A stretch of DNA of 64,000 nucleotides from Bilabrum cf. latius (GCA_965178125.1 OZ237743.1:62001-126000); one strand, 5' to 3'; counted from the stretch's first letter, positions 2,735-45,495 are shown. The notes: generated from the letters alone by a model not told the origin. Numbers and translations are program-made.

Positions 2735-2772
<38 letters not shown>

Positions 2773-19544: not shown

Positions 19545-19581
<37 letters not shown>

Positions 19582-23700: not shown

Positions 23701-26250
23701 CCAGCTCCCAGCGGCAAGCATCATCCCCCGGCTCCCAGCGGCAAGCATCATCCCCCGGCTCCCAGCGGCAAGCACTCGCCCCCGCCACCACCTGGCGGCA
23801 AGCATCATCCCCCGGCTCCCAGCGGCAAGCACTCGCCCCCGCCAGCTCCCAGCGGCAAGCATCATCCCCCGGCTCCCAGCGGCAAGCACTCGCCCCAGCC
23901 AGCTCCCAGCGGCAAGCATCATCCCCCGGCTCCCAGCGGCAAGCATCATCCCCCGGCTCCCAGCGGCAAGCACTCGCCCCCGCCACCACCTGGCGGCAAG
24001 CATCATCCCCCGGCTCCCAGCGGCAAGCACTCGCCCCCGCCACCACCTGGTGGCAAGCATCATCCCCCGGCTCCCAGCGGCAAGCATCATCCCCCGGCTC
24101 CCAGCGGCAAGCACTCGCCCCCGCCACCACCTGGCGGCAAGCATCATCCCCCGGCTCCCAGCGGCAAGCACTCGCCCCCGCCAGCTCCCAGCGGCAAGCA
24201 TCATCCCCCGGCTCCCAGCGGCAAGCATCATCCCCCGGCTCCCAGCGGCAAGCACTCGCCCCCGCCAGCTCCCAGCGGCAAGCATCATCCCCCGGCTCCC
24301 AGCGGCAAGCATCATCCCCCGGCTCCCAGCGGCAAGCACTCGCCCCCGCCACCACCTGGCGGCAAGCATCATCCCCCGGCTCCCAGCGGCAAGCACTCGC
24401 CCCCGCCACCACCTGGCGGCAAGCATCATCCCCCGGCTCCCAGCGGCAAGCACTCGCCCCCGCCAGCTCCCAGCGGCAAGCATCCCCCGCCAGCTCTGCT
24501 GACCGATGTTTACTCGCCTGGTGGTGGCAGCCAGGCGGCAGCAGAGCAGCAGGGCCAGCAGGGCCAGGACAAGCCAGTCCGCCCCAGAGGACCCAGCCCC
24601 AAGTCGGCCCGCATGAGCCCATCGAGTCAGAGGGAGGGCAAGGGCTCCTCACCCCCCTCCTCGTCCTCCCCCTCCCCTTCCAAGCCCCCAGGGACCCCCG
24701 AGGCCCTCCGCCGGCGAGGCTCTCTGAGGCAGTTCCACAGGCAGTCAGGCAGCTCCCCCCTGGCTCAGGGAGACAAGGCATCCCTCCAGCTCGGAGGGAA
24801 TGGGCCGGCCTCCTCTTCCAGTCCCGGGGAACAGTCGCCTAGGTTGTCAGGCGGTGCCTCGCCAGGTCCAGTGACCCTGCCGCCAGGGCACGCGGGGGGA
24901 TCCGCAGAAGATACCACCCCGCCTTCTTTCTGTTCCCCCCTAGTTGCCTCCAAGGCTCCTACACCGCTCGAGGCAGCCCTGAGGCACGTCGCGAGCCGCA
25001 GCGGGCGGGTGCTGGCTCGGGCCCTGAGCCACCCCAGCCAGCGTGGCAGGCGATCAGCCGTGATGACGAGTGTGTTCGAAGCTGTGGATGCAGATGGCTC
25101 CGGATCCATCGAGTGGGGAGAGCTGACCACGTACGTGCGAGCACACGCAAACGGCCAGCAGGAGGCGAAGGAGAGCGGGTAGACGAAGAGTGAAGGGGAG
25201 GGCGAGCACGTAGAGGAGGAGGAGGAGCAGGAAGGGGGCATCCCACGGAGCGTGCACGTGCTGTTCTGCGAGGTGCTGCGAGCGGCGCCCAGCCTCAGGG
25301 AGCTCTTCGACAGGTATGACCTGGACGGGAATGGGTCACTGAGCCACGGGGAGTTTTTGCTGCTGGGGGAGGACGTGTTCGTGAAGGGTGGCCCGCAGGT
25401 GGTGGAGCTCCGAGAGAGGCAGATGCAGGAGAGCAGGGACAGGGCCAGGGAGTTGGGGAACAAGGTGGTGGAGAGAGCTGCCAAGGAACAAGGAGAAGGA
25501 GCACGAGCAGAACCATAGGGAGTGGGGAATCGCCAGCACGGAGGTCTAGGCCCCGCATCGGGAGCGGGAGTGGGTATGCAGACAGGAGCAGGAGCAGGGG
25601 CTGGGAGCTCTATGGACTCCGCAGCGACACCAGCGGACGGCGATTTGGACTCCGGATACAAGCTGGCCCAGCGTGCCGCCTTTGCACCCATGCTGGCTGG
25701 GATGGGCGGCAGCAGCCGTCGGCTGGACCGGCTGTCCAGGGCCAGCGCGAGCAGCGGCGGCGGGGGCGGGGGGGCTGCCTCACCTTCCGCCTTCGGGGGC
25801 GCGGGTGTGACGAGTGCTTCGGTGCAGGGCCCTTCCTCCTCGCCGGCCTCCTCGCCGTCGTCCCCAGCGTCGAGCTGGGTGGGGCCTCGCCCCAAGCGAC
25901 CGTCCATCAAGCCGCCCAAGCCGTCGACTTAGCCGGCCGACACAGTGGGAGGCAAGGACACAGTGGGAGACAAGGACACAGGTGCTGGCGGTAGCTCTGG
26001 GACAGGCAGTGCAGCGGCAGGCCCCCCACCCAGCACTGAGCAGAAGGAAGCTTAGCCTGCTAGCAAGTCATCGGCACCCGCTTCGGCCCAGCCGCAGGCC
26101 CCCCCGCCTGCACGAGGCGCTGCCGGTGCCAGCAGTGCATCGGGGGCGCACAGGGCGGCAGGCAGACCCAGGAAGCCGAAGGGTGTGGGGCCAGGACAGG
26201 TGCCTGCAAAGTCACCGCCTCCGCCTCCTGGCATGGGTGGCGCCCCGTAA
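20731..26250 (+). CDS. Large low-complexity protein with coiled coil, His/Pro repeat and two EF-hands (about 1840 aa)
   Basis: One frame with 7 in-frame TAGs, ending at TAA 26248-26250. EF-hands: VFEAVDADGSGSIEWGEL and LFDRYDLDGNGSLSHGEF. Start uncertain. Confidence 0.7.
23230..24495 (+). repeat. Composite coding minisatellite of 27- and 30-bp units (PSGKHHPPA / PSGKHSPPPA / PSGKHSPPPP / PGGKHHPPA)
   Basis: Roughly 45 interspersed variants built on a GCGGCAAGCA core. All unit lengths are multiples of 3. Confidence 0.95.
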
Positions 26251-26449
26251 ACCAGGTGTCTGGTGGGCAGAACTGGCGCACCGCAGCCACGTCTTTGCCT
26301 CATGATGAGTTCCGGTTTGGAGAGTCCCCCCGCGTCGAGATTTCATATCAATTTTGCGTGCAGTTGCGTTTATTCTGCTCAATATTTTGGGTCCCACTCG
26401 ACTGGTCAGTAAAACGCGTCTCGTCTGGGCACGCTGTCTGTCGATATCC

Positions 26450-27676
26450 ATGCCGAAGCACAAGTTCTATGCAGTTTAGGCGGGCCGTAGAAAAGGAATT
26501 TTTTTGAGCTGGGACCAGTGCCAGAAGCAAGTGTCTGGATTTCCAAATGCTTCCTTCAAGAAGTTTTCTAATCGATCTGACGCCGAAAAGTTTGCGTTTG
26601 GGCTGGCCGCGACGTCTGGCACTGGCAGGGCTCCCGAGGACGCCATTCGGCCGAGCCGACAACCTCGGGGACCTCGGGCTCCTAGTGCGCCCCGGGCGCC
26701 CCGAGATGGCCGCCGGCGGGCAAGCAGCACGAGTAGAAGTGCAGCGGCAAAGAAGCGTGCTGTATCAGAGGCTATATCATTTCCCGAAGGCGAGGCCGAC
26801 ACGTTTGTCATGCAGTTCGACGGCGCTTCTCGAGGGAACCCAGGGCTCGCCGGGGGCGGGGCACACCTGATGGATTCGGACCGCAACGAACTAGGGCGGG
26901 CCATTGCGCGCTGGCCGCACGGACTTGACCGCGTGATGCACGACGGTCACTTCGACGGCGCCAAGGAGGTCCCTGGGGCTGGGATGGGCGCCGAGACTGC
27001 CCTCTGGTTGCAGGCACGCAGGAGGGGCAAGGGGCTGGGCACCAGCAACCAGGGAGAGTATCTGGGTCTCCTCGCGGGTCTGTGTCTTGCCAGGGACCTC
27101 CTCGCGGTTCCGCTGCTGGCGGGGCGCCGCGGGCTAACGACGGCCCAGGCACGCGCTGCTTTCGTGCGGGGCGTGGGGGATGCGGAGGGGGGCGAGGGGG
27201 ATGGAGTTGGGGAAGGGGTAGGGAGGAGCGGGGCAGCAAAAGGTGGTGCCGAAGGCGCCAGTGCTGCAGCAGCTTCGTCTTCGCACCCATCCCCGTAGGT
27301 TGCTTGCTCGTCCAGCCGTGCCGTGCCTCGCGGTCTGTCCCACACGCGGGCCCGACTGGTGCTGCTGGGCGACTCGCAGCTGATAGTGAGGCAGCTGAGA
27401 GGCTCATACAGCGTCAAGTCGGACTCAATTCTCGTGCTGCACAAGCGTGCACTGCAGCTGCTGGACCGGCTTTGGTCCGCAGGAGTGCACTGCGACCCCA
27501 GCAGCGACATTGGGCATGTACCTCGGGCGCACAACGCCGTGGCAGACGCTCTGGCCAATGAGGCTGTGGACCTGCCCGAGGGTGAGCACTTCAAAGAGGC
27601 GCTAGTGAGGGACAGGGGGCAAGCAAAAGGCAAGAGTGGGGCATCTGGCGCTAGTGAGGAGGACAGCCTGAACTGA
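26450..27676 (+). CDS. Ribonuclease H1: N-terminal hybrid-binding (Cauli_VI) domain plus archaeal/plant-type RNase HI domain
   Basis: Hybrid-binding domain [38 protein letters not shown] (TAG at 26477). Catalytic motifs FDGASRGNPG, TSNQGEYLGL, GDSQLIVRQ and HVPRAHNAVADALAN. A TAG at 27296 separates catalytic motifs; TGA at 27674. Confidence 0.9.
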
Positions 27677-27890
27677 CTGCAGTTCTTTTCCGTGATGCAG
27701 GGTCGCGATCAGCTGCCTGGTAGACTCCTTCGAGTTGCTAACCTTTCAATAGCACGTGGCAAGCTGGTGGCGGTCGACGGTGTGACGAGCTCGTTAAGTT
27801 CCGGTTTCGTAGCAGCACCGCGGTGGGTTGGGCAGGGCTAGCGAGTCTTATCTCACACTTTGGCATCTCAACCTTGAGCGCAAGGGCAAC

Positions 27891-28244
27891 ATGGCAGCAG
27901 CAGAGGGTAAAACACCATCACATGTACGCTTAAATGTGACTGTGACGCTGGACAAGTCGGACACGACTCTAGTGGACGATTACAAGAAGTGGGTTAGCGC
28001 GCACTGCCCGGTCGTGATCGAAAACGGGGCCACGAGCGGTGAGATCCTGCAGCTGCGGACGGCCGAGGGTGAGGATGCGAAGTTCCTATCGACGTACGTG
28101 TTTCCTTCCCAAGCTGCGCTGGACAAGTACGTCAAGGAGGTGGGCCCGAAGATGGCGGCTGACCTCGAGAAGTCTATAGGGGGACGCCCGATGACCTCTG
28201 AAGTAGCGGTCGGGAGCTGCTTCATCGCTGTCTCGGGCAAGTAA
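27891..28244 (+). CDS. Small DUF4286-like (dimeric alpha-beta barrel-like) protein, paralogue A
   Basis: Pattern LNVT...DYKKWVSAHCPVV...FLSTYVFPSQAALDKYVKEVGPKM resembles DUF4286. A clear paralogue starts at 29497. The TAA stop overlaps a possible GTAAGT donor, so the 3' end is uncertain. Confidence 0.65.
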   Translation: MAAAEGKTPSHVRLNVTVTLDKSDTTLVDDYKKWVSAHCPVVIENGATSGEILQLRTAEGEDAKFLSTYVFPSQAALDKYVKEVGPKMAADLEKSIGGRPMTSEVAVGSCFIAVSGK

Positions 28245-29093
28245 GTACTTGGACATCGAAATTTGGTATGTTTCCAGTCGGTGGTCCAGTGGAGCACTAG
28301 GCTGGTCAAAGAGGCCGGCTGCCAGGCTCCCGCTGTCTACTGGTGGGTTGGTGGTCACAGTTGGCCTCCTTGAATAAAAGACAGGTATACCTCCTGGCTG
28401 CAATAGTAGTCTATCACTATCTATATACAACAATGACATCATAGCTTTAAGTTTTAAGTTATCGATCAGCACAGAAGAAATAAACATGTTCAACCGGCGG
28501 CGAGGAGCAGAAGCCCAACATTTATTCGGAGAGATACAGTTCTTTGATCTGCGCATTCCGGTCGTGAATATGATCATTAGCAAAGGTGGCAGAGGCTGCT
28601 TAGAAAATAATGACTGAATACCTGTTGCTGTCCGTTCGCTCCCTACGATCCAAAATTCCGGATCGATTACGAGAAAGCAAGCAAGACGCAAAACAGCTAG
28701 ATAGATTCAGCAGGAGCAAAGCTTCCTGGAAACTAACACGTAAAATGTGCACATATCTTAGGAAGGCTGCCAACTTACAGCCGCAGTAGTGCCGCCAGTG
28801 GGGCACTTGTCAGATCCATGCAATTTGATAGACCGCCAAGCGCAAGGCTGACTATCCAAGCGAATGGAGACCACCGGCAGAAGCATGCATATGTGCACCA
28901 TGAATGCTACCTCTGCAGAGGATCGCCTACCAGGCTTGGAGGCCGAAGCTACCGCAACAACCGAGCTACTAGAACGCCAGCAGCAAGTAACAATTGGATA
29001 AGGGCACATATGAGCCCACAATACTCCCTTTAAATATGTAGGCTTCGCTTCATTGCTATCCTGTCCAGCCAACTCCCGCTCGCCATCCCTCCT

Positions 29094-29357
29094 GCGCTGC
29101 CTCAGATCCCCCGCGAATACCTCGTGTCTACGCGGCGACACGCAGGGCAGCACCACGTCCACCAGCAGAGCGCGCCACTGCTCCAATGTTTCGATCTTTG
29201 CGTCGCTACCACTGCCCCCATTGGCTGCTTCGGACGCGCCCAGCACTCCGCCCTGCCCCTGCTTCGTCCCCTCACACACCCCCATTAGCCGTTCTACTAG
29301 TGCACTGGCCCGCGAGGCGTCCCCCGCCCACACGCACAGCTGGGCATACGCTTGGGT
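29094..29357 (-). pseudogene. Duplicated internal fragment of the HIRA 3' region
   Basis: About 264 bp matching 30873-31136 in the same orientation, with about 6 mismatches. The flanks are unrelated. Confidence 0.85.
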
Positions 29358-29496
29358 GCTATAGTCATACAACTATGCACCAGCACGCTGCAAGAACACT
29401 CGATATCGGATATTTCCGGTTTATGAGCGCCGCGGCGCCAGTGGGTTGGGCTGCGCAGTCACATTTAGGCGTCTCAATCTCGAGTACGGAGGCAAC

Positions 29497-29877
29497 ATGG
29501 CAGGTCTGGAAGAGAGATCGCCGTCGCATGTGAGGTTGAACGTGACTACCACGCTGGGCAAGTCCGACGCAGCGCTGGTGGAAGACTACAAGAAGTTTGT
29601 CACGGCGCACTACCCGATCGTGATGGAGCATGGCGCAACGAGCGGTGAGATCCTGCAGCTGCAGACGGCTGAAGGGGAGGATGCGAAGTTCCTGTCGACG
29701 TATGTATTCCCCTCGCAAGCTGCGCTGGACACGTACCTGAAGGAGGCCGGCCCGAAGATTGTGGCTGCGAGGGAGAAGCATCTTGGCGGGCGACCTCTCT
29801 CCTCAGAAGTCGCAATCGGAAACTGCGTTATCGCCAGCTCAAGCGGCGACGTAGGGCGTGTGTGTTTAATTCTATGA
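29497..29877 (+). CDS. Small DUF4286-like protein, paralogue B
   Basis: About 70% amino-acid identity (by eye) to 27891-28244, with a homologous upstream sequence. Ends at TGA 29875. Confidence 0.65.
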   Translation: MAGLEERSPSHVRLNVTTTLGKSDAALVEDYKKFVTAHYPIVMEHGATSGEILQLQTAEGEDAKFLSTYVFPSQAALDTYLKEAGPKIVAAREKHLGGRPLSSEVAIGNCVIASSSGDVGRVCLIL

Positions 29878-30653
29878 GGCGGGGCGGCACGTCTAGGGTA
29901 ATGCAATGTAGCTGGAGGATAGGGCTTCTCACGGCTGCAGAGCTAGAGCCTCGATTGCACCAGTGTGGGTTGGAGCTTATTTTTTCCAGGTCTTTATGAA
30001 TGTCAGTTCCACTGTGGTCATATTATCCAATAATTGAAAATAAATCACTCATACGAAATGGGCCAGAAGTATAAAAGGGCGTACTGGTAGTACATGGGGC
30101 TTTTGTTCGAACGAGACGGCCAATTGGTAGGATGGCATCACCGCAGTCTCTGGCAGACGAGCAACCTAGTCGCCTTAAATTCATATAAGTTGGTAAATTG
30201 ATCCACTCTATCGCATTTCTATCTGCGGCTGCTCACTTGCGATCGCGTAGTGGTCGCAGAACAATGGCTTCGGCATGCGATCCTTGTTCCATGCGCGAGT
30301 GAAGCCTCTCAAAGCCCTTTGATTGCCGCGGTGTGCCGCATGCTTCTCCCAAATCTAAGTGGAATTATCCGACTCATGACTCCTCTTTCGCTGCTTTGCC
30401 TTGGTCTCCATAAAGCCCTAGACATTTAGCGTGCGACCGCTGCCAATCAAGCACAATGAATCGGATCACAAACGATTCAGTGTGTTCAACAATAGGATGT
30501 TTGTTCGCCGGTCTAACCGAAGAGATATTAGCTCGCAGCGCCCTTGGCTTCCAAACCCATCCCGGATGCTGGACGCTGTCCTGGGCTAGCCTACACGAAG
30601 GAGAATTTTTCCAATTGAACGGATCAGCTGTACTCCAATGCAAGGACGCAACT

Positions 30654-33600
30654 TCATGCTGATTGGCCGCGGTCCTACAGTAATGAGGCAACTGCTGCCT
30701 CCACAGGCGAGGGGCCGGCCCCGAGCTTCTCTAGAGGGCTTGTCGCGCCTGCAGACCCCACTCCCGCCAGCAGCAGCTCATCTTCCAGAGCCAGGTGTCC
30801 CGATGCGTTCTCCTTTCTTTGCTTTTTCTTCCCCTTGCTCGCGGCAGTCCCTGCCTCGCCCAAATCCCCCCAGCGCTGCCTCAGCTCCCCCGCGAATACC
30901 TCGTGTCTACGCGGCGACACGCAGGGCAGCACCACGTCCACCAGCAGAGCGCGCCACTGCTCCAATGTTTCGATCTTTGCGTCGCTACCACTGCCCCCAT
31001 TGGCTGCTTCGGACGTTCCCAGCACTCCGCCCTGCCCCTGCTTCGTCCCCTCACACACCCCCATCAGCCATTCTACTAGTGCACTGGCCCGCGAGGCGTC
31101 CCCCGCCCACACGCACAGCTGGGCATACGCTCGGGTCCACACCACCTCCTCCACACTGGGGGCATACTCATCACACCATGATCCGGCTCCGAATCCCCCC
31201 GCTCTCCGCACCGCCCTCGCGGCCCACAGCCGATCCTCGGCCTCCCCGAGACCGTCCACCAGCGCGCGAGCCGCCTGCAGCCGAGCGGCCTGATCCTGGT
31301 CCTGATCTGCTGCAGTCGAGGGGCGGACCCGGGCCCGGGGGCTCGCTTTTCCTTGTTCTCCGGGTTGTTCCCTGCCCCCCATAGAGGCAGAAGCAAGGAT
31401 CCTCGCGGCTGCATCGGCTGCTGCGTCGCACCTCGAAGCGATCTCGCCGATCTGGGCGCCTAGCCCATCAGTCTCTGACCCTGTCGACCCGCGGCCTCCC
31501 TCACGCGCGAGCCCTGCCGCCGCCACGGCCTCGGCTGACTGCACCAGCGCTGCCCTGAGGTCCCCGCCCAGTCCCCGCGCCCGCAGGACCAATGCACTGC
31601 CCCCCATCCCGCCCTCACCCTCGCCCTCGCCCTCGCCCTCGCCCACCCGCGCCGCCAAGCCCTCAAGTGCAGGCAGTGCACGGCGGGGCAGTACGGAGGG
31701 GAGGAGCCTCCATGCCCTGGCTCTCGTGTCAAAGACCATGTCCAGCACGGAGGGAGGAGCGGCGGCCGCCAGGGCCGGCGCATCTGCCCCGGGTGGGGCC
31801 CCGAGCCCTGCCTCGATCTGGACCAGGGGCCAGCCGCCGCGGCTGAGCCTGATCCCGCGGACGCGATGCACCATGGGCCACTGGGCTGTGGGGCCGACCC
31901 GGGTACCTGCTGCCCCCGTCCCCGCCCCTCCTGCAGCTGGAACTGACGAAGCAGTCGCGATGCCCGCCTCGGCTGCGGCCGCCGATGCCCGAGCCAGGGC
32001 AGGCGCGACCGAGCACACACAGTCCGCCACCAGCTCGCCACTACCCCCGCCCCGGCCTCCCCTGTCCTCGAGAGACCACGCGATCAGCTGTCCATCTGCC
32101 CCCAGGGCACACACCCGCACTGAGGCAGACACGGCGCCCGCTCCTTTCCTATTCCCAGCAGACCCGTCTCCCTGTCGCACGTCCAGGTACATGGCCACGA
32201 CGGGCGCCCCCAAAGACACAGGCCCAGCCACCCGCTGGCCCGCCCCGCCCAGCAGAGCCACCTCCCCGGATTCAAAGCCGACTCCCACCAGCATGTCCGT
32301 CCTGCCCTCGTCCTGCTGGGCGCCTGTCCGCCTCCTCGCTGCGGCCACGGAGCACGCCCGTCCCGGCAGACGGGCCATCCACACGACCTCCTCGGCTCCA
32401 CCGGCCCGGCCAGAGGAAGCAGAGAATGAGGAGGAGGAGGAGGAAGGAGGAGGGGGCATCTGCGACCCTCCCGACTAGCCCACAGCCAGGGTGCCGCCAT
32501 TGCCACTTGTCCTACCGCTACTTGATGCGCCAATCACGGCGGCCGAGCCACCACCAGAGCCCTCAGTTCGCCTGCTCAGAGCCACAGTGGAAGTGAAGGC
32601 AGCAGCACCTGCCGCGACCAGTGCATTCGTGACGCCAACCCCCGCGCCAGCTCCTTGCACTACCGTGGGCTGCACCTGCACGCGGGCGGTCTCCGACAAA
32701 GAGGCTTGCACGCCGAGCACCACAGATCCGCCGGGCCCTGCGCTGACAGACCAACCCGCCCCGCTCCTCTGCCAACCACCGCCACCAACAGAGGATCCAG
32801 CGCCAGATGGCCCGTCACCTGCGCCCTCTGGGTGTGCCAGCAGCCAGGGGCGGCCGCTCGCGCGCGCAGATCTCAACGCAGGCATCGACCGCGCGGGCCA
32901 CCTGGTTGCAACCGCGTCGTGTGGAGCCACCCCCGGCAGGGCAAGGGCCATGCCAATGCCTGCCCCTCCCGCGGCCCCTCCTAGTGCGGACTGCAGCGCA
33001 GACAAGAGCCCCTGCATCCCCGGCCCGCCAGCACCAGCACCAGTCCCCCCTCCTGCTCCACCCCCCCTCGCCACCTGCCTCAGCGCCCTCGTCAGCGCCA
33101 GCACCCCTTCTCTCTCAGGCGTGCCCATCCCCGCCCCACCGTCGAACCCACCACCCAGCCCCATTCCCTCGTCTTCGTCTTCGTCCGCCCCACCGTCTCC
33201 ATCGAACCTCCTTGTGTCCCCTCTCCGCCTCTTGGCCGCCCGCCCCCTCTCACTCCCCCCCTCCTCGTCTCCATCCTCCAGCAGCTGTACCTCGTCGTCG
33301 TCATCCTCCCCCAGCTGCCCTAGCGCCTCCCCTCGCCCTCTCTTCTGCCCCGCCACTGGATACGCCCCTGCTCCCCCTCCTCCGCCCCTGGACCCATACT
33401 ACCCCCCCTCCCCTTCCCGCTCCACGATCTTCTTCGAGGCGGGGCCCTTCCACTGCAGCGCGTGCCTCTGCCTCCCTGTCCTCCTCGCCCTCCACCTGCA
33501 CCCGGGCACCGGACACAGGGGGGGCGGCTCCACCAGAGCGGCATAGCCGTCACCCCCTTCGCTGGCCTCTGCTTGTTCCCTGACAGCGCCTTCCTCTTCC

Positions 33601-33957
33601 AGCAGCCGATCCACGAGAGAGGCCACGTCATCAGAGGTATCGGCTCCTGCGGCACCGCCGCTGCTGTCGATGCTCCCGCCGTCCGCGTGCTCGAGCCATG
33701 CAGTGTCCCATGGAGCGGCGCGTGCAAATGCAGAGCCCCAGCCAGCAGCCGAGTCCACCGCGTGTGGCGCACCCCGATGCCCACCCACGTGCCCCTCTGG
33801 CAGCACCGGCGTTCCAAGCCGGGAGGCCGGTCCCACGGGCAGCATCAGCAGCGCCACGTGACCGCTGGCACTGCTGGCGAACAGCGGCAGAAACACCTCC
33901 AGGGGCTGATTGGTGCTCGGATCAGAGCTTCCGTTGGAGCCCATGTCACCCCCTTCA

Positions 33958-33991
<34 letters not shown>

Positions 33992-36267
33992 TGCCTGCCT
34001 GCATGAGACCACGGCGGCCCCGGGACTGACCGCTGCCCCTCTGCTGCCCCTTCCCCGCCATCGCCCTGCGCGCCGCCACGAAGGGGTTGGCCCCCAGCGG
34101 GACAGTCATGACCTCGCCGTCCTCCCGGCGCACCACCAAGCACCGCCCCGCGGATAGGTCAGTGACGGGCTGGCGGAACACCCCGGTGAAGCGAGCCACG
34201 GGGCGCGCCCTGTCACTGGCCCACACGAACACGCCGCCCTGCGCATCCCCGGTGGCCACGATCGTCCGCCTCCTGCGCTTGGGACCAGGTGGTGGCGGGC
34301 GGACCGCGGGCCAGGCAGACCCCTGCGGCAGAAAGTCCGCGGGCAGGGCAGCCGAGCAGACCACGGGGGCCTTGTGCCCCACCAGGTCGGCCACAGGGCG
34401 GGCCGACAGTCGGCTGGACCTGCCCCCTGCAAGCAGCCTCCTCCACAGGTCCCCGGTGCCCCCCTGCTGCTTGCCAAGCAGCACGTCCGCTGGCTTGAGC
34501 CCCGAGAGCGCGTCGGACTCCAGCCCCTTCAGCCACTCCGGGGGGGCGTCCAGCGATGGCCCACCCCCGTGCTCCACCCCCTCCCCAGCGGCCCTCCGGC
34601 TCGCAGACACGACGGGGGCTGCCCTCCACGGGGCCCTAGGCACCACAAGGTCATCGCAGCCCCCCGGCAAGCGGGCGTGCAGCGCGTCTGGCATGGGCGG
34701 ATCCTGGGCGGGCAGGTGCGCCAGGGGGGTGCGAAGGGCGGGCCTGGCCACCACCGAGGCCACGGGGACCGGGTCATGTTCCGCACCCGGTAGCACGAGC
34801 GCGGCGCCGTAGGGGTCCCACGCCAGCCTCCGGAAGAGCCCCTGCTGGTCAAAGAGCCTGCCCAGTGAGCCGTCGTCGTTCTGAGTGCGGAAGGGGGCGG
34901 TGATGGAGCACTGCCTGGACCACGCAGTCCCCGGAGCGGCTGCTGCGTCAGCCTCTTCCTCTTCGTCCTCGCCAGTCTTCTGCTCCTCTCCCGGTGAGGG
35001 CGCCGCCAGCTGGGACTGCTGCGTCTGCAGCAGCAGCTGCATCCCGGTGGGGGCGCCGGCACCCGCTTGCGATAGACCAGAGCCCCCCTTGGACCCGATG
35101 CCACCCGTGCCCCCCCCCTCTTTGCCCACCCCCGCTGTGGCCCGCACCGCGCTTTCCTCCTTCTGCACCCAGCGCCGCACCCCCCACGCCCCGTCGCACC
35201 TCCGGTACAGGTCCGCCCGCCCCGCCCCGTACAATACGGCCAGGTACTCCCCTCTCGGGCCGAAGCTGGCGCTCAGGGCAAATCCACCGTCTCTCGACTC
35301 GATCACAGCCGCCGGTGACGTCACCGCGATGACTGGATCCTGCGCCGCCACCACGTGAAGCCCCGCGGCTAGCTTGTCCGCGTTTGAGGCCTGCTTGGCG
35401 GTGGGCTCCCCCGCCCTCCTGGCAGCGGTGTCCATGGCTGCCTGCGAGAGCGCCCCTCCCCTGGGAAGCACAGCAAGGGGGGCTCCAGCTGCTGCTGAGG
35501 AGGAGGAGGAGGAGATGGTCGATGGCTGGGGCAAGGCTGCTGCTACCTGGGAGCCAGGCAGAGATGGGGGTACGGTGGCACTGCCGTCCGTTGTTCCCTG
35601 GCCCCCTCGATCCCCCGTACTGTGTGGCACAGAAAGACCGAGGGCCGCGATGCTATCCATGCTGTCCTCCCCTCCCGCGAGCCCTCCTCCTCCTGCCGTC
35701 CCGAAGGCACCCATGGAGTCCTGGCTCAGCCCACCCAGCTGCATTGCCTTGCGGTGCCTAGTGGACCGCAGCAGCGCCTCGGCCACGTCCCAGACCAGCA
35801 CCCTCCCATCCGTCCCCGATGTGACGAGCAGCCGCCCGCAGGGAGACCATCCAACGCTCGTGGCCTTGCACACCCCCCTGCCCCTGTGCTGCAGCGAGGC
35901 AGCGCAGTGCCACCACCCTTGTTCCCTGCCCTCGGCAGGCCTCCCAGGCAGCGCCCCCATCACCTCGGCCAGGTCATGCGAGGCCTCTTGTTCCCTGAGC
36001 ACGGCTGCCTCCGCTGCCACCGCGGCCCTCTCCCGCTCCCCTTGTTCCCTGGGCAGCGGTTCGAACCGCGCCTCTGCAGGAGCGGGCAGCGAAGGCGGCT
36101 GGGCAGGGTCCTGTCCAACATGGGGCGGAGCTGAGGCAGACCTAGTCATCGTCTCCTGGGCAGGTGCCCCTTGGGCCTGAGCAGGGGGTGCCTGCAGCTG
36201 CTACTGCTGCTGCCCCTCCACTGCAGCAGCGGGTAAATCCGTGGCGGCCGACTGCTGCGACTATCCA

Positions 36268-36298
<31 letters not shown>

Positions 36299-37094
36299 TG
36301 GCCGCCTGTCTCTGCTTGGTTCTCTCAGCGGCTGCCTCTGCCTGCAGCTGCCTGAGCCTGTCTCGGTGCAGGGCGGCTTCGTGCGGGCGGGGCCGCTTGG
36401 CGGGGGGCTCCACGGCGGAGTCTGTGCCCAGCTGTGCTCGCCAGTAGGCCACAGCTAGAGGCCGGAGAGTCCCGTCGCCAGAGTCCTCGTCATGCTCGCC
36501 CTACTGCTGCTGCGGGCCCGATCCCGCCCGCTCCTCTCTGCACTTGGCAGCAGATGCCGGGCGGAAGGACCAGATCCTCACCGTGCCGTCTTCGCACGCA
36601 GTGGCAAGGTGGCCACCGCCGGGGGACCATCGTACCATGATGACAGCGCTGTCGTGCCCTCGGAGCGTCGCAAGGCGCCTGCCGCGCTCGCCCGCCAGAC
36701 CACGCGATCTAGGGCGATCCATCCAACCGCCAACGGAGCCTCCGACGTTAAGGCCGAGAGACTTGGCCTCATATTTTATAGAATACAGCGGAAGAGTGGA
36801 CCATACGCTCACGTCTGTTCCGAGGCCGCAGGTGGCGATGCGCCTGCCGCCTGGCTGCACATCCACAGCGTGTACAGACATCCCTGCGAAGCACAGCTAG
36901 CCAAGCATACATAAATACGTCAACGCTAAATGCCTATACATTAGCACCGAAGCGGGTCTTTGATGTCCTATTCTCTCACGTCTTAGCACAATGTCACGGT
37001 GAGCCAGCCACGAAGCCACCGACACTTCGCAGTCAGCGGCAGCATTCTGCGAAGAATCGGGAGATCGCCGGTGGAGCGACGGTGGCGACTACAT
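30654..37094 (-). CDS. HIRA: HIRA histone H3.3 chaperone (WD40 repeats plus C-terminal Hira domain)
   Basis: HIRA-like motifs in order: SVHAVDVQPGGRRIATCG, HDSAVIMVRWSPGGGHLAT, WSRQCSITAPF, FRRLAWDPYG, DLVGHKAPV, VWASDRARPV...VFRQPVTDLS, then C-terminal GFESGEV...GQRVAGPVSLG and LSRGGWPLV. One frame with about 8 TAGs, ending at TGA 30654. A short 5' intron is possible and the start is uncertain. Confidence 0.85.
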
Positions 37095-37271
37095 TGAACC
37101 ACCAAACGCTGCCAAAAGCGCTACTATGGGCGCGGATCGACTTAAAATGCCTGCGACGGAAGAGAGATTTGAAACTGCGGAACCACGAGAAGGTGGGGCG
37201 CGGCGGCCGCGGCGCCGCCTCCATGGCTGGATCGGATTCTGCGATTTCATCACTCGATTTCCGTGCCCGAC

Positions 37272-38465
37272 ATGGCAGCAGTAGCAGCAGGAGCAATGCC
37301 CTCGAGCAATTTGACAGTAGATACTCTGGATGGGAGCGCACAGCCGGCTTCCATCCACCGGAGGTCTGGTATTACCAGCTTCGACAAGTGGGTAACTGTT
37401 TTCCTACCTGACTTTCCCATCACTCGCGGTTGCTACTACTACGAGGTAGAGCTCCTTGGCCCGCTAATGTATCCATAGATTGGCTTCGGGACGATGGCCA
37501 CCAACGCAAGAGGCACGTCGGGACTGGGTGATGACAAGAACGGGTGGGCTGCTGATCCCAGTCGCTGCACTCTCTGGCATCGCGGGCAGCAGGGCGCTTT
37601 CGGTGCTCAGCGTTCGAGCGGCGTGCTTGGATGCATGATCGACACAGATGCAAGAACCATCCGCTTCGGCTTCAACGGCAACTACAGCAGGCCGTGGGGC
37701 CTGGCTTTTTCGGGTGCAGACATCGGCCGGGAGCCCGTGTTCGCGATGATGAGCTGTCAGAACGGGAGGTGTCGATTCCGTGTGGGAAGCACTTACCAGC
37801 CGTTCGTGCACGGTCCGCCGGCGGGATCTGGGGCGCTGCCGCTGTGCCAGGCGGGGGCAGGCGGGTATGCAGTGCCAGAGGCTTTGCCGCTGCGGCCCGC
37901 CCCGGACTCGGGCGCTCCGCCGTCCAGCGGCGCGTCGGGGGCTGGCAGCGGATCTGCCAGCGGAGAGGTGGGTCGATTGCGTGGTGAGGTGGCCCGTCTG
38001 ACCTCCGAGCTGGATGGGCTCAAGGCCCGCATGACGCTGATGGAGAGGCTGCTGGCGGGGCAGGGGCCGGGGCAGGGGCTGGGGTATGGGCGCGGGTAGA
38101 GGGGGGGGAGGGAGAGGGGCAGGGAAGATCGGCCGGAGGAAGATGAGGGAATGCCACGAACTTCGCACCCTCGGCGGCCTGCAGAAAGTCTCTTCCCCCC
38201 TTCTGGTCCCATGCCAGCGGAGCCTGATCCCAGGATGGACCCGCGCTTCGACCCAAGGGCACCCCCACACCCAAGCCTCCCCCCACACACAATGGTCCCC
38301 CCATACTCTAGAATAATCGCGGCGCCTGCATCTGTACCGGGCAGAGAAGGAGAAGGAGAGGGAGCAGCAACCGACGGCGATGGTCCCGTGGAGGAGGCAG
38401 AGCCAGCCCCGCCCGGTGCTTCAGTCAACCCGTACGCGCATGTGTAGAGCGTACGGATGGTTTGA
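37272..38465 (+). CDS. SPRY-domain protein (RNF123/RSPRY1-type SPRY) with a short coiled coil
   Basis: GCYYYEVELLGPLMYP*IGFGT...GLGDDKNGWAAD...VLGCMIDTDARTIRFGFNG. TAGs at 37476, 38097 and 38445; TGA at 38463. Confidence 0.8.
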
Positions 38466-38545
38466 TGTTGTACCCCCCGGGTCCATCCAGTAGGAATCCA
38501 AGGAGATTTTACAATTCACGGTGCGCAAGATTCAATTCTTGCGAT

Positions 38546-41500
38546 TCACGGGCCCCCCCTGGCCCCCAGATCCCCGCCTCGCAGATCACCGTCCTCCTCG
38601 TCCTCTCCAGAGGACAGACCATCCACCACGAATTCACCAGATCGGGGGCCCATCGGCAAGGCAGCCACACCTCCATTGCGGACTGCCGTCGGAGAACCGA
38701 AGACTTCATCCACCTGGTTGCCCCCCTCTCGACCCCCCCTCTCTCCCAGCTCCAGCTCCAGCTCGGGAGACTCGCCCCCCCCTCCCCTCGAGCCATCGCT
38801 CTCCAGCCCAAACTCGCTGTCGTCATCATCACCATCACCACCATCATGGTTGTTGCCTCGCTCACCCCCACGCCGCCCCCCTCCGATCACCCTCCTGCCA
38901 CTCCCGCGAGACCCCTTCACGCGCTCGTACCCCGGCTTGCCCCCGCCGCCGCCACCGCACATGCCCCTGCACGGGCACCCTCGCCCCAAGCACCCGCAGC
39001 AGAGGAACAGCAGCACGCCCAGCACCCTCCCCACGCCCCACCCTGCCGCACCCGGGCTTCCCGCAGCACCCTCCACCTCAGCCTTCTCCTCACGAGCAGC
39101 AACCCCACTCGTCACACCGCTCGCACCCCGAGCAGCTCGCCACGCTTCCACCGGGTCGCATCCAGCCCTCGCCAGCGCGGCAGCGTTCCTCCAGCAGCCC
39201 ACGGCGCAGCCCAGCACGGCAGCGAGCGACACCACGAAGGCACCCACACCCCCGAGCCACCCCTGCGGCAGCACCCGAGTCGCAGGCGCCCCCACGGCCC
39301 CTCCCTCCCCTTGTTCCCTGTCACTGGCGTCCTTCCCCCCGCACGCCCCCTCGTCCCCTGGAAATCTGGGCACCTCCTTGCAGGGCCCCACTGACGGGGA
39401 CGCGCTGGGACTTGGGGCTGCGGTTGGCCCGGGGGCAGCGGAGGGTATGGCAGACGACGGGCTGCCGGCCTCATTCTCGATGCTCGATACGGCCTGCAAC
39501 AGATCCAGCCGCCCTTCAGCACCAGCGCCCTCTTCGTCAGCAGGCACCAGCTCCACCTCCACCTCGAGCAGCACGGGCACGGGCCTCGACCGCCACTCCA
39601 GCCTCCCCCGCACCACCCTCCCGTTGGCCTCCTGCAGCCACTGCCGGTCCGTCCTCGCCCGCGCCGAGTGCGACTGGGGTGCCGTGCCGGCGGGCATCGG
39701 GTTGCTTTGCCGCGCCCATTCAGCGTCCACCTGCCGCGCAGAAGCCACGAGGAGGTAGGCGGCTGCAGCTCTCCGCCGGAGAGTCCTCACCGATGCATCG
39801 CCCTGCCGCCCCTGCCCCTCCGACTCCCGCCAGGTCTCGTCCACCCACACCAGGTCGTCCAGCGGGAGCGGCACCCGCGCCGAGGCTCGCTCCTTGTAGT
39901 GTGACGAGTGCATGTTGGCGCCGTTGCTGCGGAAGTCCCCCGAGCCCCAACGGGTGCTCAGGGCCCCGCTGCCGGCCTCCCCCCGCACCTTGGCCCAGCT
40001 CGCGGGAGAGCCCCGGCGCCACCCCGCCAGCAGGGGGCGTGCTTCATTGTTCCCTGGGCACCCGCACTGCTGCGTGCCCTCCTGTTGCTCCTCATTGGGC
40101 AGCAGACAGAGGCACCTCGTGCTCATCCCCGCCCTCGCGGGGGGGGAAGCAGCAGCGCCCCGTCCATCGGCCAGAACTAGGGGCACGAGAGCAGCTTCAC
40201 CCACCCGCTGCATCCATTCGGTAGGTCGCGGCTGTCTGTGCGCGCGAGTGCCTGCCTGCAGGGCCGCTGCGACAGAGGCTGGGACCGAAAAAGGTGCATT
40301 GTGGCCAGTCACCGTCGCGGCTGCGGCGTCGGACGACAGAGCAGCGGCCTCGATGGATCCGTTGAGCACGCCGAGCGCGCCTTCCAGCCAGGGGGCGCCA
40401 CCTCCATCGCCCCCTGCTGCCGCGAGGGGGGACAGCAGGCCAAGATCAGCGCCCAGGGGCCACCGCAGCAGCAGCAGCTCCGTCTCTTCCACCCTCAGCC
40501 CGCCCCCTAGGTCCCACGAGAGCCCCACAGAGGGCAGACCGCCGACCAGACTACCGCTCATGGATCCGCTGGGCCCGAAGGCAGAAAGCACCCGGGCCAG
40601 CGAGGCATTCCCAGCCGCTCCCTCGTCCCAACGACCAGCATAGACTCCGGCTCCTTGTCCGGATGCTGGTGATGCGTGTCGCGCCCCGCCAGACCCTGCA
40701 TCGAGCCTCAGCTGCATGGAGCTCGCCTGCTCTGGATCTAGGCCCAATCGTCTCAGCTGGCTCCTTGGCTTGTCTCCCAGCGCGGCCTCTAGCACTGCCG
40801 CCGGCACTTTTGCGCTGACGGTCCCACCCACCACATGGGCCCTCCCTCGCAGCTGCTGGAGCAACGCTGCACTGATCCCACCTGCCCCCAGCCCCTCGTT
40901 GCTTCCAGATCCGCCGTTTGCCTCGTTTGCAGCCTTTCTTAGCTCGCCTCCAGCAGCACTTTGCCCCCTTCGGCCGCTCGTCGCGCCACCAGTACCGCCG
41001 CTCGTGCCATTGGCTCGTGCAGTCTATGGCAGGACGACCGCGGCCGTGGCACCAGCCGCCCCGAGGGAGCCGCTGTCTGTGCGAGTGACGAGCGGCTGCA
41101 CGTACGGCTCGACCAGGTCGAGCATGGCTAGCGCAAGCCTCACGTTTCTCGTCACGTGGGCGTCTCCTTTGCCCTCCGTGCGCAGCATCTCCTGCCAGGA
41201 ACCCAGCATGCCCACTGGAGGCGTTTTTCTGTCGGATGTCTCGACCAGCACGTTCAGTGTGCGGAAGGAGACAGGGTTCGGGTTCTCTGTGCGCGCCCGG
41301 GCGTAGCCCCCGTAGGTGGTGGGCTCGCAGTACCCCACGAGTGGGGTGTCCCAGGAGGAGGCGTACGCCCAGTCCTCCATGCCTCCTCTCACGCCGTACA
41401 CGACGTCGTTCATCCGACCCACGGGGTACTTTTTGCTTGGATACCTCCCCGCGAAATCTCGCATGACTCCTCCCAGCTGTGCCTGCGCCCTGTCGTCTGG

Positions 41501-42700
41501 CGACTCGGAGTTCCTGTTCTTCCCTTGCCTTGAGGGCGCGCCCCATTCGTATGCGATGGCCTGCATGCCCCCGTGGTACGTGACCGCCATCTGGAACACG
41601 TGCTCCCGCCACAGCTCGTTCAACACCCGGGCCACCACCGTGCGCATGCAGTCATGCGTGCCCGGGGCCATGTCAATGGGGAAATCCCGGTTCGGGTCTA
41701 TGTGCAGCTCCTCTCGCTTGCCCTGCTCATACCCGATCGGGTTGGTCACCGCCAGGAGCACCACCTCGCGCGTGTCCAGGAGCCTGCGGAGCCAGGCGTT
41801 CCCCTTGACTCCGAATCCGCGCAGGGAGTGCTCCTCCGAGATAAAAGGGACGGTCTTCCCGCCATTGGCCGCTTGCATCCCCCTGCTCCCCGTGCCCACA
41901 GTTCCCTGCAGCCGCCGACCACCGAGGGGGGTCAACGGGGACAGGAGCCCGTCCAGGTCTACGGCCACAGGGGGCGAGTCGCCCAGCAGCTGCTCGCGAA
42001 GCAGCTCCGTCAGGTTCATTCCTTCTGCTCCTGCTCCGCCGAGCGCCGCGCCGTCTGCCTGCCCTGTGCCAGTGGCGCTCCCTCCCACCCCGCCTTCCTC
42101 CGGCGCGCAGTAGGCGCCTAGCAATAACTCCGCCAGCTTGATCACAGTCATCGGCCCAACCTTCTCATCACCGTGGAGATTACCAGAAAAGAATACTTGC
42201 GGTCGTTCAGGGTCCTGAGAGAGCGTCGCACGATTTGTGAGCCGGATCACCCAGTGCTCGCAGGCATCAGGTGATTTGGTCCCGTCGGCCTGGTACGTCT
42301 TGCACTTGCCTGCAGATGGCAGCCCGTAACGCTTCTGCGCTGAAAACAGCTCTGCAAGTCCCGGATATGCGTCGGCAAGCGCATGCAACCGTTTCACAAT
42401 GTCAGCGTACGAGTGATATGAAATTTGCCGTTTCGTGACCAGCCGCTTGCCCGTCGTTGTTCCTAGCTACCTCTGGTTTCCATCATCAACAGATAGCGAT
42501 CGGCGCAAGACACCGGGCTCCTTTGCTGGTACCGCAATCCCGCACGGCAGTGGAACGTCTTCAGATGCAAGAGAAACACGCCTCTGCGAGCTGACGCCTG
42601 GTGGGCTCAATGTGCCGGTACCGACAGCTCCTTGGCCCAACACGAGAGCGGCGACGACAATAATAGCTAAAGATTCGAGTAGTTGGCCTGGCATGAACAT
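38546..42700 (-). CDS. M14 zinc metallocarboxypeptidase (carboxypeptidase D/N/E-like) with signal peptide and C-terminal TM segment
   Basis: Hydrophobic leader, then YHSYADIVKRL, GNLHGDE (HxxE), DPNRDFP, TYHGG, GGMEDWAY and VETS. TM segment WLGGVGAFVVSLAAVLGCAVGCW. TAGs at 42467 and 41024; TGA at 38546. Confidence 0.87.
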
Positions 42701-42825
42701 TGGGGTGGCGTTATGGACACGTTCGTACACGATCCTGTGGCTTTCGCGTATTTTTCCTCGCTCCGAGGCTGCAAACGAACCTTCGTGAACGACACCAAGC
42801 ATTCTGCAACGCCAAACAAATGCAC

Positions 42826-45495
42826 TTACAACAACCCCCCTTGCAGCAGAGCGGATCTCTGCACGCCCCCTGCAGCCGCCCCCCAGGTGCCTCCCATGCC
42901 CTCGAGCCCCTCCCCGGCAGCAGCAGCAGGAGGAGGCCCCGCGCCGCCACCCGTGCTCACACCGACGGCACCTCCCTCCATACCGATCCCATCGCCCCCG
43001 TCTCCCCTGCTCCTGCCCAGCCCCGCATCCGGCCTGCCCGTCGTGGCCAGGCTCAGCTGCCGCAGCAGCGCAGCGAACCTTCCATCGAACTTCACCAGCC
43101 AGTCCCTATCGAAGAGCTGCCTGCCCCCGATCCGATCCACCTCCTCAGCGGCCAGGGGCAGCCCAACAGTCCCCGCGCCCTGACCAGGCCCCGCACTGGT
43201 CCTCCACCGATTCCCACCGCCGTGCGATGCACCCCCTCGGGCACCCAGCCAGCTGCGCTTGCCCCCACCCGCGCCCCGGCTCCGGCCCAGGATGCTGCCG
43301 CCGTCCAGCTGCGTCACCGATCCCGTGCCCGTGCTCGAACCTCCCATGGACCCGACAGACCCTGCCCGCAGCCTGCCCCTACCCCCACCACCGAATATTC
43401 CCCCTTGGAGGCCTGATCCATCCTCAGGGCCCATGCCTCCGGCGCCGACTGGCACTGGCGCCTAGTCCTCGGTTCCGTGTTCCTCGGCCCCTTGGCTCTT
43501 CTTCTTCTTCTTCTTCTTCCCTGTCTTCTTCTTCTTCCGCTTCTTCTTTGGCTTTGGTTTCATCGACTCGCTGGCTGCAGCTCCATCGCCGGTGTCGTCC
43601 CCCCGGTCCTCGCGCTCGTCGCCTGCACCACCGTCCTCCTTGCCCTCACCTGCCCCTGTGCCCGCCCCCTCAACCCCTATGCCCCCGGCCCCGCCCTTCT
43701 GCTTCTCCAAGCCCATCACGATGTCCGCTGCATCCCCCGCCCTCCTGCCGGTGCCCTCCCCTTCATCACCCAGCCCACCCCTATCACCACCTCCCCTGTC
43801 CCCGCGGTGAATGCGCCCATCCCCCCCCCTTCTACCCCCACCGCGGAGGGGGGACAAAGCCGGGCCAGCTCCGGATCCGCGAGCCTTCGAGAACGCGCCT
43901 CGCCCCTTCCCCAGCCGAATCGGACTGCCCATCGACGAGGAGGAAGAAGAAGAAGAGGATGCCACCGGACCAGACCGGGCCCCTGCCCCAGCCCCTGCCC
44001 CTGCCCCCTCCATGGGGCCACTCGCCATGCCCGCGGGCCTTCGCCTCGAGGCACCTCGAGACCGCAACCGACGGCTATCCCCCGCCGCAATCGATCGCAC
44101 GGGCGGCTGGGCCGCACCATAGGCAGCCCTTGCCGCTGCAAAGCCGCTCCCCACCCCGAGTCTGACACCACTTGCCTGCCCAGCGCCGCCCTGCTGCTGC
44201 TGCTGCTGCCTCCGCTGCTGCTTCTTCCTTCTCTCTGCTGCGCGCTTCCTCCTGCGCCGCAGTGCATCCGCCTCCTCGCCCGCGCCCGCACCCACAGCAA
44301 TCCCGCCTGCAGACACTTCACCGCCCTTGGATTCTGGTCTGCCCCCACCGGGGTGACCCCCCCCTGCCATGCCCCCACGACCCCCCCCTGGTTGCCCCGC
44401 GCGGCCAGGGGCACCCGCCCCCGCCACCGCCAGCACGGCGTCCTCCACCTGTTCCCTGGGCATTCTGGCGAGGCTGGACGCTAGCACACCCAGCAGCCGC
44501 AGCACGCCCGTGGAGCGCCGCCCCCGCAGCACGTCCCAAGGCCGGATGGCGGCGGGCTGCCCCGTCAGTCGAGCCACCAGCGCGAGCACCCTCGCGACCA
44601 TCTGCTTGCGAGCCTGCTCGCTGCTCAGCAGCACAGAGGGCGCGGCCGAGTCCCCAGGGAACAGTGCGGCGAGGGGCCCACCACCTCCTCCTCCTCCTCC
44701 CCCCTGCTGGTGCCCTGCTTGCCTCGATTCGCCGGGGCCGTTTTGCTCGCCCCGTGCCGCGTCACCCGTGTCCCCGAGAAGCGCCAGAATCACCCGCATC
44801 ACCACCACGAAAGGCACTGTTGCACCCAGAAGCTCCTCTTCGTCGACTGGCGAGTCCCCGACCACGGCCCGCAGCCAGTGCAGCAGCTCGCGCGCGGCAT
44901 CGTGGCGGAGCGGAGCGTCTTCGTCCAAGGCTGAAGACTCCAGAGATGCAGCGGCCACGGTCTATGCAGCCGACGAACGAGCCTGTGGGGTTATAGGAGA
45001 AACAGACCTCAAGCCTGCCGCAGGCTGGCCCGCAGCGGAGCGGCTCGAGGCGGTGGATGGCGGGCTGCTTCCCGGTTGGCCTCCTTGCGCGAGCCCCACG
45101 CTCCCACCGAGACCACTCTACGGCTCAGCTTCCATTGGTCTCATACCAAGGCTACCTATGCCAGGGTTGGGAGCAGCGGCGTTATCTGCGAGCCTTGTCC
45201 GGCCGCCAGCCCCGGTTGGCCGGTTGTCGTCGCTGTCACCATCACCGTTCGAACTCATGGAATACTGGTCTGAATCGCCCTCGTCTTCAGCTTCCCCTGC
45301 TTTCGACTCAAACATGGATGGACCCGAATCCAGAGGGCTTGGCTTGCTGTCAAGCTGTTTGCGCAGCCCAAGCGGCGTCGTCGGCCCTACCGAGTCTTGT
45401 GGGGCTGCAGCAGAAACACTCCCAGATTCTTCTTCGTCAAACTCATCTGCGTAGTCTCCTAAGCTGTCGTCGTCACCTAATGCAGAGCTTGCCAT
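42826..45495 (-). CDS. Low-complexity protein with a possible CH-like (IFT54/TRAF3IP1 N-terminal-like) domain
   Basis: One frame with 3 TAGs, ending at TAA 42826. The segment RKQMVARVLALVARLTGQPAAIRPWDVLRGRRSTGVLRLLGVLA weakly resembles the MIP-T3 CH domain. Contains a Lys-rich tract. Confidence 0.55.

Follow-up and report, generated by a model that had tools for sequence, protein, structure and literature searches.

Genes of the window

The stretch of DNA analysed here (OZ237743.1:62001-126000; the window, 64,000 nucleotides (nt) long, with positions counted from its first letter) carries 16 protein-coding genes, and we examined how their reading frames use the codons TAA, TAG and TGA. We found that TAG recurs inside the frames, that TAA and TGA are absent from them, and that no gene need end at TAG. 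Taken together with the comparison to relatives, these observations point to a code that uses UAG as an ordinary codon for glutamine (Gln), while UGA (12 of 15 gene ends) and UAA (3 of 15) are the stops. This is the pattern of NCBI translation table 15, and we assign this reading a probability of about 0.8.

The window, from a genome of 65% G+C (guanine plus cytosine), ranges between 59 and 71% G+C. When TAA and TGA are taken as stops, open reading frames (ORFs) of at least 300 codons cover 124,591 nt and the longest has 7,767 nt; under the standard code, such ORFs cover 68,373 nt and the longest has 2,958 nt. Since 11 of the 14 ORFs called first match eukaryotic Pfam families, the long frames are real genes. 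The matches comprise SNF2 with HNH (ZRANB3-like), WW, RCC1 with EF-hand, endonuclease/exonuclease/phosphatase, EF-hand, RNase H1, DUF4286, WD40, M14 carboxypeptidase and metallophosphoesterase; a gene with a SPRY domain was added later. The distances between genes are 80-960 nt. We interpret the window as nuclear DNA from a protist whose genome is GC-rich, dense in genes and poor in introns. The nearest named homologues of G3 are proteins of Cafeteria roenbergensis/burkhardae, with 35% identity over residues 473-1137 and 28% over residues 1475-1805. A bicosoecid-like stramenopile near Cafeteria would be a reasonable, still unproven source.

The refined set contains 15 genes with complete 3' ends, and the 16th gene (G14) leaves the window. 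Compared with the first set, four gene models were revised, namely the start of G9, an upstream exon of G2, the starts of G4 and G10, and G8b as a paralogue of G8. The genes are as follows.

G1, 1676..7420, + strand: ZRANB3-like SNF2 helicase with HNH, 1914 amino acids (aa), 18 in-frame TAG, TGA stop
G2, 7787..8766, + strand: WW-domain protein, exon 1 at 7787-7863, intron at 7864-7961, exon 2 at 7962-8766, TGA stop
G3, 9132..15497, + strand: RCC1 and EF-hand protein, 2121 aa, 11 in-frame TAG, TGA stop
G4, 15597..18230, - strand: endonuclease/exonuclease/phosphatase family, 4 TAG, TGA stop, likely start at ATG 18083
G5, 18230..20317, - strand: 695 aa, without a Pfam family, 11 TAG, TGA stop
G6, 20731-26250, + strand: EF-hand, Pro-rich repeat protein, 1839 aa, TAA stop at 26248..26250
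G7, 26450..27676, + strand: RNase H1 (Cauli_VI and RNase H-like), 2 TAG, TGA stop
G8, 27891-28244, + strand: DUF4286 protein, 117 aa, TAA stop at 28242..28244
G8b, 29497..29877, + strand: G8 paralogue (DUF4286), 126 aa, TGA stop
G9, 30654..36908, - strand: WD40 protein, 2084 aa, 7 TAG, TGA stop
SPRY-domain gene, 37272..38465, + strand: 397 aa, 3 TAG, TGA stop
G10, 38546..42802, - strand: M14 zinc carboxypeptidase, 2 TAG, TGA stop, likely start at ATG 42700
G11, 42826-45495, - strand: 889 aa, without a Pfam family, TAA stop at 42826..42828
G12, 46453..53679, - strand: 2408 aa, without a Pfam family, 16 TAG, TGA stop
G13, 53646..57476, + strand: metallophosphoesterase-like, 3 TAG, TGA stop
G14, 58021..63999, + strand: at least 1992 aa, 8 TAG, leaves the window without a stop

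A longer model of G9 (30654-37580) was rejected: its first 224 codons lie antisense to the SPRY gene, and the start was placed near 36908.

Part of this gene order recurs in a 6.1-kb DNA contig of 57% G+C from a distant relative (L001), where the last part of G1 is followed, as in the window, by G2 and G3. The intron of G2 (98 nt, GTGAGT..CAG) has the same position, phase and GTGAGT donor in L001 (about 953-1069). It is the sole intron verified in 64 kb, so the genes here are almost intronless.

In-frame stop codons and gene ends

To describe the use of the three codons, we counted them in frame. The refined set of 15 genes (16,753 codons) holds 87 TAG, 0 TAA and 0 TGA, and the first, uncorrected gene set (18,557 codons) gave 95, 0 and 0. 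In-frame TAG occurs at least once in 12 of the 15 genes and makes up about 11% of the Gln codons. The five other frames of the same DNA each hold 24-32 TAA, 115-304 TGA and 69-115 TAG. Thus, the frequency of TAG in frame (95) equals its out-of-frame level, and TAA and TGA are purged from the coding frames.

Because TAA had been used as a stop in calling the first frames, the count was repeated on frames bounded by TGA alone. These frames of G1, G4, G9 and G10 (1,928, 881, 2,589 and 1,533 codons, part of the G9 frame being noncoding) contain 35 TAG and no TAA. In the remaining long TGA-bounded frames, TAA was found only before the first ATG, or at or after the called stop. The original prediction that the traced genes contain no in-frame TAA therefore holds, whether or not TAA is assumed to be a stop.

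Tabulating the terminal codons of the 15 complete 3' ends gave 12 TGA, 3 TAA and 0 TAG. The TAA ends proposed earlier at 26248, 28242 and 42826 were all recovered; the number of TGA ends, put at about 14, came to 12.

The same usage was found in L001. Its 1,626 codons include 11 TAG, 0 TAA and 0 TGA, with 3-13 TAA in each of the other frames, and both of its complete gene ends are TGA. The G3 frame of L001 is open for 1,236 codons only when TAG is read as sense.

TAA as a termination codon

We next consider the three genes that end at TAA (G6, G8 and G11). After each terminal TAA the G+C content falls from 0.63-0.73 to about 0.5, and the TGA stops show the same drop. A codon-usage score, calibrated at 0.33 +/- 0.26 for coding windows and -0.39 +/- 0.35 for intergenic windows, changes across the TAA from 0.41 to -0.13 in G6, from 0.19 to -0.22 in G8 and from 0.53 to -0.38 in G11. 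Neither measure recovers after any of the three codons.

Specifically, the TAA of G6 (26248-26250) lies in the context CCG TAA ACC, outside any GTAAGT word; the G+C content is 0.73 in the last 60 nt before it and 0.60, 0.52 and 0.50 after it, and G7 starts 200 nt later in another frame. In G8, the DUF4286 match spans residues 14-98 and the TAA follows 19 residues past the match. The paralogue G8b ends at a TGA 9 codons beyond the point of the G8 TAA, from which on the two loci are no longer similar. At the end of G11, the G+C content changes from 0.70 to 0.50, 0.53 and 0.50.

Several observations weigh against reading all three TAA as stops. Those of G8 and G11 are both centred in the word GTAAGT (28241-28246 on the + strand and 42829..42824 on the - strand), which is the classic, canonical 5' splice-site word. 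GTAAGT holds 6 of the 249 TAA on both strands, and the chance that two of three terminal TAA would fall in it is about 0.002. Within coding frames, GTAAGT never occurs in sense except at these two TAA. Furthermore, removing 26 nt (GTAAGT..GCAG) after G11 joins its frame to that of G10. Should the GTAAGT words at 28241 and 42829 serve as splice donors, both G8 and G11 would have their TAA inside an intron.

On this view TAA would be an avoided or unassigned codon, G8 and G11 would continue past 28242 and 42826, and TGA would be the working stop. Introns do exist in these genes, as the 98-nt intron of G2, conserved in L001, illustrates, and the candidate intron of G8 (37 nt, GTAAGT..TTTCCAG) ends in TTTCCAG. 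Yet the spliced G8 frame would end at another TAA (28375-28377), the TAA of G6 is not within GTAAGT, and G+C content and coding score drop for good after all three. The candidate introns of 26 and 37 nt also differ from the verified one of 98 nt with its GTGAGT donor. The word is not always a donor: its copy at 37796 (-), tried as an intron of G9, was rejected because it lies antisense to the SPRY gene. We consider it improbable that TAA is not a stop.

Splicing of G11 to G10 through the 26-nt candidate is unlikely, as judged from composition and from the start of G10. The sole verified intron has 98 nt and GTGAGT, and 26 nt leaves no room for a branch point. The 34 codons past the join score as noncoding (-0.22 in the G10 frame), and G10 has its own hydrophobic start at ATG 42700. 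In the translation, this hydrophobic N-terminal stretch looks like a signal peptide, which would fit the need of an M14 ectoenzyme, and G10 looks like a gene separate from G11.

Searches for independent evidence on these ends returned little. The window is present in eight sequencing-run rows from four studies, none listed as an RNA run and three of them RNA by guess. Contigs from these runs (X5-X8), aligned over 25600-45500, were mostly short and identical to the window and yielded neither transcript ends nor variants of use nor believable splice joints; the candidate joints had sides of only 20-27 letters and lay at low-complexity repeats. The poly(A) signals TGTAA, AATAAA and ATTAAA followed no consistent pattern after the stops. 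Scans of the collections yielded no orthologue of the end of any TAA-ended gene (G6, G8 or G11). A scan of a metagenome collection with G7 gave 597 pattern matches and no relative, a genome-contig scan likewise gave none, and scans of viral contigs with G8 and G10 found no match.

Taken together, the sequence evidence makes TAA very probably a working stop in this organism, and the two TAA within GTAAGT, in G8 and in G11, are each probably stops as well. The claim that UAA and UAG are uncoupled here stands in its main part, as UAG is sense and UAA is kept out of coding frames and placed at gene ends by the counts, the fall in G+C content and score, and L001. For termination as such the evidence is thinner than first supposed, two of the three TAA being in GTAAGT. 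The whole sample amounts to 15 gene ends read from sequence, which also tempers the reading of the code.

TAG codons shortly before TGA stops

In four genes, an in-frame TAG precedes the terminal TGA by 8 (G5), 7 (G9), 6 (SPRY gene) and 6 (G12) codons. Their positions are as follows.

G5, 18256..18254, - strand: near-stop TAG
G9, 30677..30675, - strand: near-stop TAG
SPRY gene, 38445-38447, + strand: near-stop TAG
G12, 46473..46471, - strand: near-stop TAG

About 0.5 genes are expected to show this 6-8-codon pattern. Three genes have a TAG at most 7 codons before TGA (permutation P = 0.009, with a threshold picked after the data had been seen). Such an excess speaks for a second meaning of UAG and against its being an ordinary Gln codon throughout: it could be read as Gln within genes and yet terminate translation close to where some mRNAs truly end, as in the context-dependent codes of Condylostoma, karyorelicts and Blastocrithidia. 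Lengthening to the next stop of genes that formerly ended at TAG would, however, leave this pattern too, and the density of TAG in frame matches that out of frame, with no avoidance. In ciliates with a comparable code (see below), UAG is widespread in most genes, as in the window, and no sign of dual meaning was found (PMC11687900). We therefore regard a dual UAG as unlikely.

The simplest reading is that the four near-stop TAG are original stops and that, once UAG had been reassigned, translation continued as far as the following stop. Counted in this way, 4 TAG, 8 TGA and 3 TAA would make a believable ancestral usage for a GC-rich genome.

Amino acid encoded by TAG

To determine the meaning of TAG, we compared the window with its relatives at 27 aligned TAG sites: nine against a close relative, eight window TAG against L001, and ten L001 TAG against the window. 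The close relative is represented by protein fragments 84-87% identical to G1 (P0121, P0122) and 84-92% identical to G3 (P0150, P0151), which were found by database searches admitting short proteins. Over all sites Gln stands opposite TAG in 9 of 27, whereas it makes up 4% of residues in general; every other residue occurs 3 times at most.

Nine TAG of the window lie inside stretches that are 84-92% identical to the close relative's proteins on both sides. Opposite codons 1030, 1037, 1048 and 1161 of G1, P0121 (84% identity) has Q, Y, K and Q, and opposite five TAG of G3 the close relative has Q, H, E, S and L. The codons of eight of these nine residues are single-base neighbours of TAG, which fits TAG codons that arise and decay at loosely constrained sites.

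In the comparison with L001, Q stands opposite the window's TAG at 2 of 8 sites and opposite L001's TAG at 4 of 10. G3 has CAG at 12387-12389 and 12543-12545 where L001 has TAG, and G2 has CAA at 7999-8001 opposite an L001 TAG within the motif AVYPxVF. The TAG of G3 at 12744-12746 (codon 1205) and 10113-10115 (codon 328) are opposite Gln in relatives, and P0008 has Q opposite the TAG at codon 493 of G1. Three of the sites lie in motifs that are well conserved (AVYPxVF, FMGGFxGDGPEA and P(I/V)AxRVDL); each of them is Gln, and at the last of them Gln is also found in three Cafeteria proteins and in P0182. TAG was further found within Gln runs, for example QQQxG and QQQxQLQ.

Two points temper this result, which comes from a small sample. 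Gln accounts for just 9 of the 27 aligned sites, most TAG lying at fast-changing positions, and, independently of its meaning, TAG would tend to pair with CAG through C/T transitions alone. In an alignment of G1 with 120 homologues of near length, the TAG sites fell in unconserved stretches and gave no information on the meaning of TAG; for G12, a database search admitting shorter proteins found no match.

A different amino acid for UAG would have precedents in the rhizarian exLh (Leu) and in Scotinosphaera (Ser). Single aligned sites do have L, S, K, E, Y, H, A, D, G, C or M opposite TAG, Leu occurring once and Ser three times among the 27, and neither in a conserved motif. The excess of Gln over its background, the three best-conserved motifs and the Gln runs leave this alternative very improbable. 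We regard the assignment of TAG to Gln, judged from these alignments, as close to certain.

That both UAA and UAG encode Gln (table 6), with TAA made rare by 65% G+C, is scarcely credible: A-ending codons are in the minority, with about 0.7 G+C at third codon positions, but the A-ending partners of two-fold codons still reach 16-23% (CAA:CAG = 147:597, or 147 of 744), so that TAA used like CAA should appear about 23 times beside 95 TAG and was seen 0 times (P about 8e-10), the other frames do hold TAA, three ORFs end exactly at TAA with coding signal lost, and the relative of 57% G+C has no TAA beside 11 TAG (CAA:CAG = 17:30, P = 0.007). The absence of in-frame TAA is thus not a product of GC bias.

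The proteins of the close relative in the databases bear a related mark: P0121, P0150 and P0151 start or stop at or beside TAG sites. P0151 terminates just before the TAG at codon 863 of G3, and the end of P0150 corresponds to a CAG of the window. In public collections, the close relative's genes have been cut at its own TAG codons by gene calling under the standard code.

Relation to known codes

The premise of the original prediction, joint reassignment of UAA and UAG in most variant codes of eukaryotes, is in agreement with two papers (PMC5304391, PMC11687900). The first description of UAG being reassigned alone, UAA remaining a stop, dates from 2017 and concerns Iotanema (Gln) and the rhizarian exLh (Leu) (PMC5304391). 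Later cases are Scotinosphaera (Ser), Protocruzia (Gln) and phyllopharyngean ciliates (Leu, and Gln twice) (PMC11687900), the Ser assignment in Scotinosphaera being reported as well in PMC8271138. Uncoupling of UAG from UAA is therefore not a new kind of code, several having been described since 2017; the window looks like a new lineage for a rare code that is already described.

A close match is Iotanema spirale (Fornicata; Panek et al. 2017, PMC5304391), with the same use of UAG for Gln and of UAA and UGA as stops, and with the same predicted mechanism of a tRNA-Gln(CUA) and an altered eRF1. Its primary stop is UAA, whereas TGA ends 12 of 15 genes in the window. Iotanema is an anaerobic metamonad known only from a transcriptome, while the window is genomic DNA of 65% G+C with Cafeteria-like homologues (PMC5304391).

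The ciliates Hartmannula sinica, Trochilia petrani and Protocruzia tuzeti (McGowan et al. 2024, PMC11687900) likewise reassign UAG alone to Gln. In these ciliates UAA makes up 86.9-98.3% of stops and UGA is the least used, an order that is reversed in the window (PMC11687900). Their genomes have 27-54% G+C, in contrast to the 65% of the window, whose long multi-gene DNA and Cafeteria-like gene are not ciliate-like (PMC11687900). In exLh and uncultivated phyllopharyngean ciliates (Leu) and in Scotinosphaera (Ser), UAG alone is reassigned and UAA is a stop, as in the window, but the amino acid differs, the sites of the window favouring Gln (PMC5304391, PMC11687900, PMC8271138).

Among the NCBI tables, table 15 (Blepharisma nuclei; some phages, with TAG = Q) reads the genes of the window open. 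The phages that use it are unrelated to the window, which has eukaryotic domains and a spliceosomal-type intron. The codes of table 6 (Tetrahymena, Hexamita, Dasycladales) share UAG = Gln with the window; in them UAA is also Gln and only UGA stops, whereas TAA occurs at 0 of 16,753 codons in the window and ends three genes.

In full-text literature, covering few subscription journals and excluding supplements, we found no report of nuclear UAG reassignment or another code change in stramenopiles or bicosoecids. We tentatively propose, at somewhat less than even odds, that this is the first nuclear code change in stramenopiles. It would mark an uncultured clade of GC-rich, Cafeteria-like flagellates with at least three environmental taxa, in which UAG alone was reassigned to Gln and UGA is the main stop, the four near-stop TAG being fossil stops or sites of context-dependent termination. 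A point against this placement is that the Cafeteria affinity comes from a single protein, G3.

Possible mechanism and age of the change

By analogy with Iotanema and the ciliates, UAG could be read by a tRNA-Gln(CUA) derived from tRNA-Gln(CUG) by one base. Such a tRNA would not read UAA, owing to a C:A mismatch. In parallel, recognition of the G in UAG by eRF1 may have been lost or weakened, with UAA and UGA still recognised. That this mechanism is borrowed from other lineages counts against it as an account of the window. No tRNA gene and no Rfam match was found in the window or L001, and the eRF1 gene is absent from both. Predictions of a tRNA(CUA) and an altered eRF1 were made previously for Iotanema and the rhizarian exLh, in a source that names the eRF1 N-domain motifs as GTS, NIKS and the YxCxxxF region (PMC5304391), and the same argument was applied to ciliates (PMC11687900). 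These motifs include sites that read the third base of the codon, and in Iotanema the change T32G affects a residue in contact with that base.

The change would be old enough to be common to three environmental taxa, whose proteins have 84-92% and about 44% identity. It would post-date Cafeteria or lie outside it, because the Cafeteria orthologue has Gln at one TAG site.

Other features of the window

The genes are packed very tightly in places. The stop codon TGA of G5 shares sequence with the G4 frame's first ATG (18230), the divergent frames of G12 and G13 overlap by 34 nt when each is counted from its first ATG (53646-53679), and G11 and G10 are separated by at most 125 nt (42701-42825). 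The true starts of such closely packed or overlapping frames are probably inner ATGs. No extra gene was found in the unannotated stretches of the window apart from a - strand ORF at 4-582, which has a weak coding score and extends past the window start.

A local duplication surrounds G8. The DUF4286 gene is present twice (G8 at 27891-28244 and G8b at 29497-29877), and between the two copies lies an apparent fragment (28761-29285, - strand), a copy of about the last 60 codons of G9 (30654-30900, - strand). The word GTGGGTTGG occurs four times on the + strand of the window (27823-27831, 28343-28351, 29441-29449 and 29965-29973); in both G8 and G8b, one copy precedes the ATG by about 60 nt and another follows the stop by about 100 nt. 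Its expected number is 0.77, and four copies were reached in 1 of 100 shuffles. The word may serve as a promoter or terminator element, unless it is simply a piece of the unit that was duplicated.

The coding regions are rich in low-complexity and tandem peptide repeats, with Gly-Ala and Gly-Thr runs in many genes. G6 carries units of the PPAPSGKHH type (23000-25300), and G5 carries six copies of VPVPAGAPSQVLASVA (18700-19000). There is no TAG inside the repeat arrays of G5 and G6.

Significance

Few codes separate UAG from UAA; those described are in Iotanema, a rhizarian, Scotinosphaera and some ciliates (PMC5304391, PMC11687900, PMC8271138). Standard-code gene callers fragment the genes described here. 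Since the database proteins of relatives start or end at TAG sites, environmental genomes of this clade are expected to be mis-annotated unless table 15 is used.

The finding touches the question of whether UAA and UAG are tied to each other by wobble decoding and eRF1 or can change separately in evolution. Another independent case would help here, as it comes from a very different genome with 65% G+C and UGA as its main stop. The lineage probably has a cultured standard-code relative in Cafeteria, as well as several related taxa at varied distances. Together, these features would provide a natural series in which the switch could be dated and the changes in eRF1 and tRNA-Gln sufficient for it could be found. 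The fossil TAG stops, if true, would record how a proteome absorbs the loss of a stop codon.

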